Below, in pieces: positions 1-18,083 of a stretch of DNA of 64,000 nucleotides. This DNA is from Octopus sinensis (lineage: Eukaryota). The notes under the pieces are model-generated. The model was not told the DNA's origin. It was given only the letters and a program-made list of their open reading frames with translations, and made no database searches. The stretch is taken from positions 1,302,001 to 1,366,000 of the forward strand of contig NC_043005.1 of assembly GCF_006345805.1 (NCBI RefSeq). Reading direction: 5' to 3'. The translations under genes and the position numbers were made by a program. Position 1 is the first letter of the stretch; each line of letters begins with the position of its first letter.

Positions 1-499
1 GCACCATATAAAAATACTTCAAGAGGAGCATGGAGAAGAAAAATAGTAGAATGCCAATATCAAATTGCTTAACTGTATCCAGTTGCATTTCAAATCCCAC
101 AGGAGCTGACACTGTCATTCATCCCCCTTGGGTCAATAAGATAATAGTTGAGTACCAGTGAACTGAGACCAATTTAATGGTGTGCACCATAGCTGAGTCA
201 ATCTGCAAATATTAGAAACCATTTTTGACTGAGAAGCCATGATAAGCTGAGAGTCTGCCAATGATGACAGTAGACAGAACAGTTCTCTACCATTTATGCC
301 ATCAGCACATGTGTGCGTTTGGAATGGATGAAGCAGTTTGAAACCAAACAAAATTCAGCACAAAGGTTTATGTAGATTATTGAACAAAGCACATGAAAAA
401 TACCGATACACATGATAAAGTGTGCATATCACACACCACATGCACAGTAATGCATAGATTTGCACTTGTGCATGTATACATGGATATGTGTGTAAGTAG

Positions 500-3425
500 A
501 TACCCCCAACAACGATGCTATCTCTGATACCCCTTATTCTGCTTGTTTCCTAATTCCTGCCCCTCAAACTTCACAGCTCAGCATCGTCTATACCAACTCG
601 TGCTCCTTATTTCCAAAGTTCAGCGAAATATTTACACTGGCCATGCATGATTCCCCAGATGTGATAGCTATCACCAAGACTTGGCTGACTCCAGCAGTAA
701 AGGACTTGGAAATCCACCTACAGGGCAACGCCCTCTTCAGATGTGACAGAGAAAAAAGGCGAGGTGGAGGTGTTGCTGTGTATGTTAAATTTGATCTCAA
801 ACCGTCCAACTGTATTCTACCCACTAATGCTCAACCTACAACAAAATTCGATGCCGTCTATTGCAAGCTGAGCATTTCTGGGTTTTGCCTGCCCGTGTTA
901 GCTGTCTACAGGCCGCCTCTTGCCGACCCCCAGGACAATGCTCATTTACTCGAAGCGATAAGATTCGTTTCATCTTCTCATGAATGTTTGATATTAGGAG
1001 ACTTCAACGCTCCCATGATCGACTGGCCCGCATCAATTTGTACATCATCTTCCTGGTTCGGCCAGGCCCCTCTTGACGTGACTGAAGATTGTTTTCTATT
1101 GCAACATGTTGAATCTCCCGTCAAGGCATCGGTCTGGGCAGCAGCCATCTATGCTGGATCTGGTATTCTCCCGCTATCCAAGATCAGTATCAGGCTTATC
1201 TGTGCGCGCCCCTCTTGCCAAGAGTGATCATGCGGTCCTGAAGTTTGACATGCACACAACTTTTTCTACGCCCACAACTACTTCGCTACCACGTAGAGTC
1301 TTCTCTGCAATCAATCTTGAAATTCTAACCGAGGTTTCTGTGCTTCTGGACTGGCAATCCCTGATGACAATGTCCTCAGTTGACAAACTATGGTTGTCCC
1401 TCAAAGCATATGTAATCTGGTTGACTGACCGAGCAGTTCCCATTGGGCTTCCCAAGAAGAAGAAACACAAGCCCTGGGTGACGAAGAAGGTTAAATGAGA
1501 ACTTCGACTCAGAGATATTGCTTGGGCTGAATTCAAAAATCTAGATTCGACTGCAGCTTTTGAGGTGTACAAAACTCAACGAGACCAAGCCGTGAAAATT
1601 GAAAAGGAAGAACGCTTCAGATATGAATACAGAATCGCGGCAAACGCCAGTAGCAAACCAAAAACCTTCTTTGCCCATGTCCAACAGAATTCCCACTTGA
1701 ACAACCAAATTGCAACGTTGGTAGACTCAACAGGCATATCGATTGTGGACCCTTATCAGTAGAGTCAGTTATTTGCTGAGGCTTTTTCGACAATTTTCAA
1801 ACAAGATGATGGTCATGAACCCCCTCCATTTGATAGATTGGTACCTCCAATACCTAGATTGGTCATCACTTGGGACGAAGTCGAACGCATTATTCAAGGC
1901 CTCAATGTCAACAAGGGTCACGGCTCTGATGGCATACACCCACAGGTTATCAAAGCGTTGGCTCCAGTCATCTGCGAACCTTTAACACTTCTATTCAATA
2001 TGTCATTGGCGATGGGTGTTGTACCAGCGGACTGGAGAATAGCGATAATCTGCCTGATTTTCAAGAAAGAGAGCTGTGAAGACCCGCTTAACTACAGACC
2101 AGTTTCCCTTACTTCAATAATCAGCAAGATGTTCGAAACCATCCTCAAGAAAAGTATGTTGCTCCACCTCCAAAACACAGCCTCTATCTCTGATTCCCAA
2201 CACGGCTTTGTGCCAAAGAGATCATGCTTGACCAACTTACTGGTAATGGAAGAATTGGGGACGCGCATCCTCGATGATAGTGACGCTGTTGACATCGTTT
2301 TATTAGACTTTGCCAAAGCTTTTGACTCGGTAAACCACCGCCTATTACTTGTCAACCTTCAAGCATATAGTTTCCATCCGGATATTGTATGATAGGTTGG
2401 TGCCTTCCTCTCGGATCGCTCCTTCCAAGTCCAAGTTAATGGTTCGCTGTCTGACGTCTCCAGTGTGAGCAGTGGCATGCCTCAAGGTTCAGTGCTTGGG
2501 CCGTTATTGTTTTTAGTCTTCATCAATGACTTGCCCAATGACCTCACACAACACACCCTTCTATTTGCCGATAATGTCAAACTGGTCGCTCCTTGCGGTG
2601 ATATAGATGATCTTCGTCGATGCCTCCACCAAGTTTGGAGATGGTCAAACGAATGGGACCTGTGTCTGAACGTGTCAAAGTGCTGTCATCTGCCTGTTGG
2701 CTCCTCTTCTGCAACTCAACTTGATTTCGAGCCGGGTCGTCTGCTGCTGGAGAAGACCGACCAGGTAAAGGACCTGGGTATCTTGGTGGATTCTTCCTTC
2801 TTGCCTTCAGCCCAATGCGTCCATGCTGCCAACAAAGCACGCGGAGTTCTGTTTTTGATTTGACAGTCATTCAGAATGCTCACAGCAGCCATATTCCTAC
2901 CGCTGGTGAGACCCATATTGGAGTACGGGATTCAAGCCTCTTCTCCTTATCTCTTCAAAGACATACATCATCTCGAAAGAGTCCAGAAGTTGGCTACCTG
3001 CATGGTTCTTGGTCTCAAGCATTTGTCTTATGAAGAAAGGCTGAAGACGCTAGACCATTATTCTCTAGAAAAACGCCGCCGCCGTGGTGATCTCATTCTC
3101 ACTCACAACATCATAAGCGGAAAGTGTAACCTCTCGAAAGAGCTGTTCTTCACTCCGGCTCCAGAGTGTCAGCTGTAGGGTTACTCCGAAAAGCTCTATC
3201 TGTGACGATTTCATCTCAATCAAAGGAGAGGGGCTTTCTCTGTCCGAGTTGTGGATCTGTGGAATAAACTGCCAGACGGGATAGTGAAGATGCTGACGAC
3301 CGGTCGGTTCAAAGTCTCTCATGACCAGAAATGGCCTGAACTCTTTGCATGAACACCCTCCCTGTACTTAACTCCATGTCCCCCTACATGGCCTTGCTCT
3401 TGCTTTTAGAGCCAAAAAACTTAAC
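500..3425 (+). mobile_element. CR1-clade LINE, near-complete ORF2 (APE endonuclease + RT), disrupted by stops and frameshifts
   Basis: Consecutive ORF pieces carry APE motifs (YTNSCSL, IAITKTWL, RCDR..RRGGGVAVYVK, YRPP, LILGDFNAP, LDLVF, SDH) and RT motifs (NYRPVSLTS, QHGFVPKRSCLTNLL, LDFAKAFDSVNH, GMPQGSVLGPLLF, LFADNVKL, KDLGILVD). The CR1 C-terminus follows (LERVQKLAT, YEERLK, SLEKRRRRGDLI, WNKLP). The element ends at a (CA)/(TA) microsatellite. Confidence 0.93.
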
Positions 3426-7010: not shown

Positions 7011-8085
7011 ATTTTGATTTGATTTTGATTTTTCCAGTTTCAGCTAATGAGCTGTGGCCATGCTGGGGCACCGCCATTTGGTTTGCTATATGATTTTACC
7101 TCACGAATGCTTTTTAGCAACTGCCATTAGGTGCATGAGAGAGTTCGATGCAGCTGCCCTCATCTGCACATCCTGCCGTGAAGTTGGTTCATCCGGAACA
7201 CCTGACAGGAAGAGATCCAGTCCTACTTTAAAGATATCCGCATCTACACCATGCAGGTCCCTCAGGTTCTTCGGGAGAATATTGAAGAGCTGTGGGCCTC
7301 TGAAGCCCAGGCTATCACAGTATCTTGTCCTACATCTTGATGGCAAATTTGGAGTCCTTGGTACTACGCAGTGGCGCCCGGTTCTGGCATTTGTGTGACT
7401 CTCGATGCCAAAGTTTGGGACAAGTCCTTCCAGGATCTTCCAGATATATATTATGGCATATCTTTCTCACCTACGCTCCAGGGAATAGAGCTTTAATCTC
7501 TTGAGTCTTTCCCAGTAGCTTATATGCTGCACAGAGGCTATCTTCTTCGTGTAGCTTCGTTGGATCATCTCAAGTTCTGTGATCAACTTGACACTGGATG
7601 GTGACCATAGCTGAGAGCAATAGTCAAAGTGGCTTAGGACAAGTGTCTTCCAGAGGACCATCATGGTTTCTTGTTCTCTTGTTCTAAAGGTTCTAAGAAT
7701 CTATCCACCCAGCCGTCTACATTTCATTGCCAGTTTAGCAACATGTACATGAAAGGTCGCGTCATCACTCATGTGAATACCCAGGTCATGCACTGATTGT
7801 GCCTCTGGGATTGCAATCCCTCCGGGTCCAGTGTATTCATTGGGTATTGCATTCAGTTTTGCATGCTGATAGCATAAAGCTTGAAACTTTTCAGCATTGA
7901 ACTGCATGCTATTCTTTTCAGCCCACTTGTATATTTTGTCCAGCTCACATTGCAGGTGCTTAGTGTCTTCAGGGTTCTGTATTGCCTGTGAAACTTTTGT
8001 ATCATCTGCATAACTTGTGATCATCGCTCTCTGCGTGGCTGAGGGCATGTCTGAGAGGGCCATTATGAACAGTAGTGGTCCCAAA
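7011..8085 (-). mobile_element. CR1/L2-group LINE, 5'-truncated (RT domain 4 to 3' tail), tail-to-tail with the previous copy
   Basis: Motifs GPLLFIMALSD, SYADDTKV, MQFNAEKFQ, DLGIHM, HFDYCSQLWSP, YWERLKRLKLYSLERR and GPQLFNILPK. Tail is (aaaatc)n at 7011-7030. Confidence 0.9.
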
Positions 8086-8213
8086 ACATATATTACAAAG
8101 GAGTGGCCCTATCCTACAGTGCACAGTAGCTGTTTCTTTGGCATACCTGTAGAAAGCTCTGGGGTTAGATTTTATGTTGTCTATATATTATATATCATAT
8201 ATATATATATATG

Positions 8214-8505
8214 TGTGGCCGATGCCAGTGCCGCCTAGACTGGCTTCCATGCCAGTGGCACATAAAAAGCACCATCCAAACATGGCCGATGCCAGCACCG
8301 CCTTGATTGGCTTCCGTGCCGGTGGCACGTAAAAAGCGCCCACTACACTCTCGGAGTGGTTGGCGTTAGGAAGGGCATCCAGCTGTAGAAACACTGCCAA
8401 ATCAGACTGGAGCCTGGTGCAGCCTTCTGGCTTTCCAGTTCCCCGGTCGAACCGTCCAACCCATGCTAGCATGGAGAACAGACGTTAAATGATGATGATG
8501 ATGAT
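8214..8505 (+). mobile_element. RTE-family 3'UTR copy with two gtgccNNNggcac-aaaaagcacc modules and a (TGA)n tail
   Basis: Same 3' sequence as the ORF-bearing RTE copies at 20100-20350 and 40400-40709. Confidence 0.85.
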
Positions 8506-8533
8506 AATATATCATATATATATTATATATATA

Positions 8534-8914: not shown

Positions 8915-8991
8915 TATATTATATATCATATATATATTATATATATATATATATATATTATACCATATATATTACAAATATCATATATATA

Positions 8992-8993
<2 letters not shown>

Positions 8994-9023
<30 letters not shown>

Positions 9024-9475
9024 TTAACGTTCGCTTTCAAAGCTGGCATGGGTTGGATGATTTGACTGAGGTCTGGCAAACCAAATGGCTGCACCAGGCT
9101 CCAATCTGATCTGGCAGAGTTTCTACAGCTCAATGCCCTTCCTAACGCCAACCACTCTGAGAGTGTAGTGGGTGCTTTTATGTGCTACCGACACTAGGGC
9201 CAGTCAGGTGGTACAGGCAATGGCCATGCTCAAATGGTGCATTTTATGTGCCACCTGCACAGGAGCCAGTCCAGCAGCACTGGCAACGACCTTGCTCGAA
9301 TATTTTTTCATGTGCCTCCAGCACAAGTGCCAGTAAGGCGATGCAGGTAATGATCACGCTCGAATGGTGCTTTTTACATGCCACCGGCAAAGAAGCCAGT
9401 TTGTTGCTCTGGCAACGATCACACTCGGATGGTACTTTTAGCACTCCACTAGCACAGATGCCAGTCATCGAATTT
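8994..9475 (-). mobile_element. RTE-family 3'UTR copy with about five hairpin modules
   Basis: (CAT)n tail, conserved tail sequence, and repeated ggtgcttttt-a-c/t-gtgccacc units. Confidence 0.85.
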
Positions 9476-9708
9476 GATTTTGATATTATACATGATATAT
9501 ATATTATATCATACATATCATAAATATATATTATATATATATTATAGACATATATATATATATATATATTACGGAGATGTACTTGCATAGTAAGTGACTT
9601 GTTCAGAGATCGTGTGCTGGAACGAAAACAATTGTAGCGTGGAAGGTGTTTATAAGCCATTTAAGAAACAGACAAAAATGTTAGATTTACTTCAACATTT
9701 AAATTTAA

Positions 9709-9759
9709 TTTGTCAAAATAATTTCATCACTTTGAGACCGCGACCTGTTCACTGACAAA
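9709..9759 (-). ncRNA. Minimal hammerhead motif, G3-C8 core variant (left arm)
   Basis: Minus strand reads tttgtca-GTGAACA-g-gtcgc ggtctcaaa gtgat-GAAA-ttat-TT-tgacaaa. Confidence 0.65.
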
Positions 9760-9789
9760 ACTTTGTGCTGCATCTGAGCAGCAGGAAGT

Positions 9790-9840
9790 TTTGTCAGTGA
9801 ACAGGTTGCGGTCTCAAAGTGACGAAACTATTTTGACAAA
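9790..9840 (+). ncRNA. Minimal hammerhead motif, G3-C8 core variant (right arm)
   Basis: tttgtca-GTGAACA-g-gttgc ggtctcaaa gtgac-GAAA-ctat-TT-tgacaaa, with a 7-bp stem I and a 5-bp stem II. Confidence 0.68.
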
Positions 9841-9931
9841 TTAGATTTAAATGTTGAAGTGAATCTAACATTTTTGTATGTTTCTTAAATGGTTTATAAA
9901 CACCTTCCACGCTGCAATTATATATATATAT

Positions 9932-10243
9932 ACGGTGGCATGTAAAAAGCACCATCCGTTCGTGGCCATTGCCAGCCTCGCCTGGCCCCGTGCCGGCGGC
10001 ACGTAAAAAGCACCATCCGTCCGTGGCCGTTTGCCAGCTCCATCTGGCACCTGTGCGGGTGGCACGTAAAAAGCGCCCACTACACTCACGAAGTGGTTGG
10101 CGTTAGGAAGGGCATCCAGCTGAAGAAACTTTGCCAGATAAGACCGGAGCCTGGTGCAGCCTTTTAGCTTCCCAGATCCCCGGTCGAACCGTCCAACCCA
10201 TGCTAGCATTGAGAACGGACGTTAAACGATGATGATGATGATG
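9932..10243 (+). mobile_element. RTE-family 3'UTR copy (three hairpin modules, CpG-rich, apparently young)
   Basis: gtgccggcggcacgtaaaaagcacc modules, conserved tail and (TGA)n. Confidence 0.85.
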
Positions 10244-10255
10244 ATATATATATAT

Positions 10256-10293
<38 letters not shown>

Positions 10294-10471
10294 ACATATA
10301 TACACACTAGCTAACGTACCTGGTAATTCCCAGAAAAGTGGGGCTTATCCTCTGGTCCTGTTCTCATAATTGTTTCACTAATCCATATGTTTCACTACAT
10401 ACTAAGTATGTAGCCCTTAAAACGGTTTTTGTGCATTTATTGAGAATACTGAACTGTCTTAGACAGGATCT

Positions 10472-10945
10472 TCATCATTATCATCATCGTTTAATGTCCC
10501 ATGCTAGCATGGGTTGGACAGTTTGTCTAGGGTCTGGGAAGCCAGGAGGCTGCACCAGGCTCCAGTCTGATCAGGCAGTGTTTCTACAGCTGGATGCCCT
10601 TCCTAATGCCAACCTCTCCATGAGTATAGTGGGTGATTTTCACCTGCCACCGGCACAGGGGCCAGAGGATGCTGGCAATGGCCATGATTGGTTGGTGCTT
10701 TCTGCCAACAGAGGTAGTAGTTCTCTGAAATTCCTCCAACCTATTCTTATTCTAGAACTAATACTTTCAGAGCATCCACCACTGTTACTAATTTGGTCAC
10801 CTAAATAGCAGAAACTATCTACTACCTCAAGAGAGTCTCCCAACCATTTGAGAGAGTTTAAGTCTCTTGTGCTCTTAGTACTTATTGTTCCTATACATCT
10901 ATCACACACAAAAGCAACCTTATCTGATAATCTTCCCATGCATCT
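10472..10945 (-). mobile_element. RTE copy, internally deleted (RT segment fused to 3'UTR)
   Basis: ORF 10640-10939 reads FVCDRCIG...LEVVDSFCYLGDQI...RIRIGWRNFRELLPLL and joins directly to the 3'UTR/tail. Confidence 0.85.
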
Positions 10946-17496: not shown

Positions 17497-17559
<63 letters not shown>

Positions 17560-17566
<7 letters not shown>

Positions 17567-18011
17567 CTAGAAATATGTTACAAAAAGAAAATAGAAACTA
17601 CACGAGGTAATGTAAGGGGAAAGTAAGAAAAATAAATGAAAATGCACATTATAAATCAAAAAAAGTAAAGGCTTTTTATGAAAAGTAACGAAAGATGTAT
17701 ACAATTAGATGAACTGAGGTAAAAGTATTATAAAAGTCATTATTGTGAATTGTTAAAGAGATTCAAAAGCATACCGGTTTTGTAAGTTACTAATCATTTA
17801 ACAATTCAGCAATGATTAGTAACTTACAATTAGTAACTTACGAAACTGGTATGCTTGAATCTCTTTAACAATTCACAATAATGACTTTTATTACTTTTAT
17901 TCCTACCTCAGTTCATCTAATTGTATATATCTTTCATTACTTTTCATAAAAAGCCTTTACTTTTTTTTGACTTACAATGTGCAATTTTGCTTATTTTTCT
18001 TACTTTCCCCC
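17560..18011. mobile_element. Penelope-like-derived palindromic element (arms ~17615-17797 and ~17812-18011)
   Basis: AT-rich inverted arms of ~180-200 bp, with hammerhead-like motifs at the centre. Flanked by (TA)n. Confidence 0.72.
17804..17860 (+). ncRNA. Minimal hammerhead motif, A3-U8 core variant
   Basis: agca-ATGATTA-gtaac ttac aatta gtaa cttac-GAAA-ctgg-TA-tgct. The mirror copy on the minus strand (17761-17797) reads ATGATTA-gtaacttac-AAAA-ccgg-TA-tgct. Confidence 0.6.
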
Positions 18012-18046
18012 TATATATATGTATATATATGTGTATGTATATATAT

Positions 18047-18083
<37 letters not shown>

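Follow-up and report, generated by a model that had tools for sequence, protein, structure and literature searches.

At positions 17564-18011 of the window (the whole 64,000-nt stretch of DNA that was analysed), the 3′ end of a multi-copy repeat probably occurs twice, in head-to-head orientation, and this repeat end is likely the pLTR of a Penelope-like element (PLE). Together with copies of the repeat in other organisms, the two copies share a predicted type I hammerhead ribozyme in which positions 3 and 8 of the core are A and U. The palindrome itself would be an ordinary product of Penelope-like insertion, and the interest lies in the core.

The palindrome is bounded by two (TA)n microsatellites. 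The left one (17501-17560) is the likely target site, judging by its sequence and by the ends of contigs from public runs, and the right one occupies 18012-18083. A one-sided extension of about 50 nt (17564-17614, minus strand) precedes the left arm. It constitutes the 3′ end of the repeat family, has no partner on the right arm and is read here as a PLE “tail”. Self-alignment delimited a left arm (17615-17798, minus strand), an inverted 5′-truncated copy of the repeat end (putative pLTR), and a right arm (17811-18011, plus strand), a direct 5′-truncated copy without the tail. The arms were 184 and 201 nt long and 92% identical (166 of 180 aligned positions, with 25 gap columns). Folded as RNA, the inverted repeat reached -230 kcal/mol (z = -30), and none of 100 shuffles was equally stable. 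A preliminary description of this DNA had reported inverted arms of about 190 bp, and both the alignment and the fold bear this out. It had also placed the start of the element at 17615, which has to be moved to about 17564 given the left-only extension. The arms are short, AT-rich and non-coding, with three ORFs of 22-50 amino acids, and no second copy of the 17564-18011 element was found within the 64-kb window. The arms are joined by a 12-mer (17797-17808, plus strand) that is an exact copy of 17864-17875 and the reverse complement of 17746-17757. A match of this length was reached in none of 2000 shuffles of the loop, so we interpret this templated insertion as a sign of template switching.

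The hammerhead motif lies on the plus strand, where its boxes are AUGAUUA (17812-17818), GAAA (17842-17845) and UA (17850-17851). In standard hammerhead numbering, the first of these supplies core positions 3-9 (A3 U4 G5 A6 U7 U8 A9). The segment 17842-17851 supplies G12 A13 A14 A15.1, a short stem III (ACUGGU), U16.1 and A17, with the predicted cut after 17851. The right arm thus carries the type I boxes U4 G5 A6, A9, G12 A13 A14 and A15.1-U16.1, and its H17 is not G. The plus-strand segments 17804-17811 and 17852-17860 form the 5′ and 3′ strands of stem I, which pair over 8 bp with one bulge (probabilities of 0.93-1.0 for the three pairs checked in the isolated motif). Stem II (17819-17841, plus strand) consists of 4 bp, C.C, another 4 bp and a 5-nt loop, with G10.1-C11.1 as its closing pair. 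Over stems I and II together, probabilities in the isolated motif were 0.86-1.0 for the six pairs checked. The canonical identities C3 and G8 are absent from the AUGAUUA core. Positions 3 and 8 nevertheless form a Watson-Crick pair, A3-U8, not only in the two arms but also in the loose-end consensuses of two public runs, X1 and X8.

The left arm holds a broken hammerhead on its antisense strand (17760-17797, minus strand), in which AUGAUUA, stem II and ACCGGU are kept, G12 is changed to A and the 5′ strand of stem I is missing. Here stem III has the form ACCGGU, very short and self-complementary as in dimerising PLE hammerheads, with a self-duplex energy of -8.3 kcal/mol versus -3.2 kcal/mol for the right-arm ACUGGU. 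The preliminary description had located the motif correctly (AUGAUUA, GAAA, UA and the agca/ugcu strands of stem I), but its stem I of 4 bp is in fact one of 8 bp with a bulge in the right arm. The palindromic accggt stem III that it described is intact on the left-arm antisense strand, where G12 is lost, but not in the right arm, where the core is complete. The loss of G12 and the change from ACCGGU to ACUGGU resemble, by their sequence, changes of the CpG-decay type. In the full-element transcript the pairing probability of stem I was about 4e-23, as pairing between the arms forms a hairpin of about 190 bp. This genomic copy is probably decayed and inactive: one arm is without G12, the other has a weaker stem III, and the hairpin is predicted to trap the two.

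A hammerhead descriptor permitting any Watson-Crick 3-8 pair, designed post hoc with the finding already known, matched only once over the two strands of the 64-kb window, at the AUGAUUA motif. In 30 block-shuffled windows it gave no match with stems I and II of at least 4 bp and a short stem III, and at a looser setting it gave four matches in total. The Rfam hammerhead models were not among the 35 and 48 matches recovered for this DNA, where only sub-threshold hairpin and microsatellite matches appeared. Non-matching was expected from the changed core, yet it still counts against membership by that test.

Stem II of the right arm owes its length to a 14-nt tandem duplication, seen as a 13-nt exact repeat at 14-nt spacing. 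That this duplication lengthens the stem rather than breaking it had been suggested before, and the resulting 4 + 4 bp confirm it, but there was no sign of selection. When 14-nt duplications were simulated along the arm, 24 of 173 folded equally well or better, and thus the extension carries no selection signal. The stem becomes longer because the duplicated stretch is a near-palindrome. No 14-nt insertion was found among the 12 indels listed from the public-run contigs.

Part of the stretch was matched by 20 of 24 listed public runs, under six organism labels and with no RNA run listed among them. Four of these runs (X1, X2, X3 and X8, one each from organisms A, B, C and E) were used to align contigs to 17562-17830, within which 17805-17830 had zero contig cover in all four and was not counted as evidence. 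Between 864 and 1298 contigs aligned per run, with identities from more than 99% down to less than 90% in every run. The repeat is therefore a multi-copy family, a status taken from contig counts and the spread of identities and not from summed depth. Contigs of the family cover the extension and stop at 17564, where the loose ends consist of (TA)n in every run (27, 41, 43 and 20 contigs).

The core was directly read in two of the four runs, among the loose ends listed. Behind 17780 in X1 (18 contigs, agreement 0.81) and behind 17785 in X8 (29 contigs, agreement 0.78), the sense strand of the ungapped consensus reads AUGAUUA, and the strand preceding it pairs over 10 bp with the sequence past the cut site, forming stem I. 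Contigs of both runs also align through the ACCGGU stretch. Stem II is far less constant, with the sequence GUAAUAUUAC in X8, GUAAAUUCAC in X1 and GUAACUUAC in the window. The three have only the two outer pairs in common (G-C and U-A), and the third pair is an A.C mismatch in the X1 consensus. As a control for chance, a relaxed A3-U8 core pattern was searched in viral contigs, and all 11 matches had stems I and II of at most 2 bp and were rejected for want of stems. Since AUGAUUA and the 10-bp stem I are kept in two organisms while the inner part of stem II varies, we regard A3-U8 as a family trait and not as decay. The claim that an independent family carries an A3-U8 core, first made from this copy, is therefore supported, as the same core and a stem I able to form were found in the consensuses of two other organisms. 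Selection on a ribozyme would leave this sequence pattern, in which core and stem I are conserved as stem II changes, and A3-U8 was likely kept in this way. The conservation between organisms could also come from plain descent of one master copy.

Two minor classes of contig were observed beside the main one. Loose ends behind 17783 (4 contigs in X1, 6 in X2 and 4 in X3; agreement 0.64-0.86) have the core GUGAAC, a different palindromic stem II and an altered stem I strand. As A9 follows only in the X2 consensus, this class is treated as a lead towards a possible G3-C8 sister subfamily. In all four runs a few contigs join 17594-17604 to 17660-17673, skipping 65-69 nt of the arm, and these may represent a deletion subfamily.

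The preliminary description had taken the palindrome for the functional architecture of the family, and this part of it is not supported. In X1 and X8 the consensuses run from the core through stem I into non-palindromic upstream sequence, unlike the loop of the window. Only one opposite-strand joint (one contig, in X2) was present among the joints listed, though other copies may fold back further upstream, beyond the reach of the 17562-17830 reference. On sequence grounds the palindrome is probably not the architecture of the family. It is most likely a by-product of PLE insertion, because the contigs lead into upstream sequence of an ordinary kind, a templated 12-mer makes up the loop and the layout matches inverted pLTRs described in PLEs. 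In EN+ PLEs, head-to-head inverted pLTRs with a palindromic junction and an optional one-sided tail are described as such a by-product (PMC3846280; PMC8557442), and microsatellite targeting is described in Neptune and Naiad (PMC8557442). The element in the window likewise has an inverted 5′-truncated copy head-to-head beside a direct one, a putative tail on one end and (TA)n on both sides. It differs in that truncation of the two copies as far as the ribozyme has left no coding sequence. Its extension is also longer, at about 50 nt versus the 30-40 nt described for PLE tails, and none of the loose ends listed fell near 17614.

A second palindrome, at 9571-9925, is built in the same order of (TA)n, a left-only extension of about 55 nt, two head-to-head arms of about 150 nt and (TA)n. 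As had been noted, its sequence is unrelated (best blastn E = 0.85), and its centre did not fit the hammerhead descriptor with any Watson-Crick 3-8 pair. Because the layout is shared, one insertion mechanism acting on two families would explain both palindromes.

Insertion of the element can be pictured as follows. The endonuclease of the element would nick (TA)n, and reverse transcription from the tail would proceed through the uncleaved hammerhead, halting just beyond the core. The new strand may then have changed templates, using 12 nt of its own sequence, and re-primed at a short ATTCA match in stem I to produce the inverted arm. In an active parent, ribozyme cleavage would take place after GUA in a dimer held together by ACCGGU, and A3-U8 would serve as the 3-8 pair required for the active fold. 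Przybilski and Hammann reportedly found in 2007 that any Watson-Crick 3-8 pair keeps activity in vitro. In descriptions of the active fold, C3-G8 is a tertiary pair (PMC3884650), and a dimer model of cleavage has been proposed for PLE hammerheads (PMC4209133; PMC6765202). The tail of the anole PLE is defined by two internal start sites of reverse transcription, the main template is uncleaved RNA, and a C3G/G8C double mutant partly restores cleavage (PMC11167929).

The repeat likely belongs to the PLEs, to judge by its layout and its ribozyme, no reverse transcriptase or GIY-YIG gene being linked to it. Among the 20 long frames selected from the window, no PLE-type Pfam domain was found, only remnants of LINE-type reverse transcriptase and endonuclease. 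Scans with the family pattern gave no match in viral contigs and none in GTDB; 17 pattern matches in metagenomes, none with the core or arm sequence, were rejected as chance. A known octopus Naiad with an overlooked hammerhead was also considered, and was rejected for the published Naiad_Obim and Naiad_Ovul consensuses on the basis of a motif search and a comparison of 3′ ends. Seven short motifs gave no match to Naiad ends in the PMC8557442 supplement, where wrapped lines may hide matches, and the 3′ end of Naiad_Obim printed there appeared by eye to be unrelated to the repeat. In O. vulgaris, 190 families of Penelope-like elements account for 6.83% of the genome (PMC13282606), and searches of that paper and its supplement gave no mention of hammerheads and no motif match.

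Three other explanations were weighed against a PLE insertion with a family-wide A3-U8 core. The core may be a dead or nearly dead relic, in which two mutations became fixed in one master element and were copied passively, with no need for ribozyme activity. Purine-3/pyrimidine-8 pairs are slower in some backgrounds, which counts for this reading. So do the slow PLE hammerheads (PMC4209133), the amplification of Naiads without canonical hammerheads (PMC8557442) and the insertion of the anole PLE in vitro without cleavage (PMC11167929). Against it, the two changes are transversions that exactly restore the 3-8 pair, and the rest of the core, ACCGGU and the 10-bp stem I are intact despite the altered inner stem II. 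We therefore find a relic rather improbable. It is unlikely that the repeat is instead a non-autonomous hammerhead element (a non-LTR retrozyme or SINE-like PLE derivative) without a coding parent, moved by PLE protein and inverted here by accident. The short, AT-rich, non-coding arms and the type I hammerhead are what such an element would have. Retrozymes are described as low-GC units of about 300 nt (PMC7229834) and have been proposed to derive from pLTRs (bioRxiv 10.64898/2026.07.22.740005). However, they are defined by head-to-tail tandem units, whereas here the two units face each other head-to-head, the extension is one-sided and the commonest family end adjoins (TA)n in all four runs.

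It is very unlikely that the palindrome is itself the mobile unit, as a MITE, a fold-back DNA element or a member of a hairpin-moving family, with the hammerhead either incidental or acting as a central processing signal. Its TA flanks on both sides, its near-perfect arms and the similarly shaped element 8 kb away would fit such a unit. However, its ends are asymmetric, with an extension on one side only, where symmetric terminal inverted repeats would be expected, and the main loose ends of the family do not fold back at this junction. The non-palindromic upstream sequence of the main consensuses, the single opposite-strand joint listed and the templated loop also speak against it, as does a hairpin that would prevent the ribozyme from folding. 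A PLE insertion carrying the A3-U8 hammerhead thus remains the preferred reading.

In several respects the family resembles the minimal, dimerising hammerheads of PLEs, sharing their type I topology, UGA/GAAA/UH boxes, G10.1-C11.1, palindromic stem III and AU-rich flanks, and the occurrence of pairs on opposite strands. In Schistosoma PLEs, minimal hammerheads are described in pairs, one on each strand and 100-700 bp apart, as is a natural U3-A8 swap (PMC4209133). Unlike the PLE minimal hammerheads, the present family has A3-U8, a 10-bp stem I and a short, near-palindromic stem II. The extra base typically found in them between positions 9 and 10.1 is absent, as it is in two of 56 published representatives (PMC4209133). 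As counted in that paper's supplement, these 56 PLE hammerheads comprised 53 with C3-G8, two with U3-A8 and one with U3.G8, and none with A3-U8. Natural U3-A8 hammerheads (PMC3088659; the Schistosoma Cercyon families, PMC4209133) also show a compensatory change of the 3-8 pair, but they keep a pyrimidine at 3 and a purine at 8, whereas this family places the purine at 3. With non-LTR retrozymes the family has in common a short, non-coding, low-GC sequence, a type I hammerhead and a relationship to PLEs, but not the head-to-tail tandem arrangement, and its end adjoins (TA)n.

Among natural 3-8 pairs, the published cases that we found are C-G and, in rare instances, U-A. No case of natural A3-U8 was present in searchable full texts; most subscription papers, including the survey of Lunse et al. 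2017, fall outside that scope and could contain such variants. Within the searchable literature the architecture is thus already known, and the family-wide natural A3-U8 core looks new. An A-U pair retained in several organisms, possibly alongside a G-C sister, would offer a covariation series from nature for the active site's tertiary pair. This would argue for selection on the active fold of PLE hammerheads, though cleavage is dispensable for insertion in vitro (PMC11167929), and would expose a blind spot in descriptor-based ribozyme counts. We tentatively raise the further possibility that this is the first natural working purine-3/pyrimidine-8 hammerhead family, possibly with a G3-C8 sister, and that its stem I is a site of strand fold-back. 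If so, such cores are invisible to CUGANGA descriptors and may be carried by some retroelement families considered to be free of ribozymes. Fold-back at stem I would in that case explain why head-to-head inversions of PLEs break at the hammerhead.

The A3-U4-G5 of the right arm (17812-17814, plus strand) spells an AUG start codon, which is impossible with a C3 core; the downstream frame is short here. The ORF of the anole PLE begins inside its hammerhead (PMC11167929). The window as a whole is animal-type sequence, rich in repeats and LINE remnants. Broken frames of a LINE-type endonuclease and reverse transcriptase (Pfam Exo_endo_phos and RVT_1) were located at 496-2860 (plus strand) and 7704-8108 (minus strand). 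In addition, a dispersed repeat of about 200-350 nt with 72-87% identity was found at 8217-8533, 8928-9291, 9960-10299, 10468-10701 and about ten other places, and includes an inverted pair at 10007-10244 and 10472-10701.
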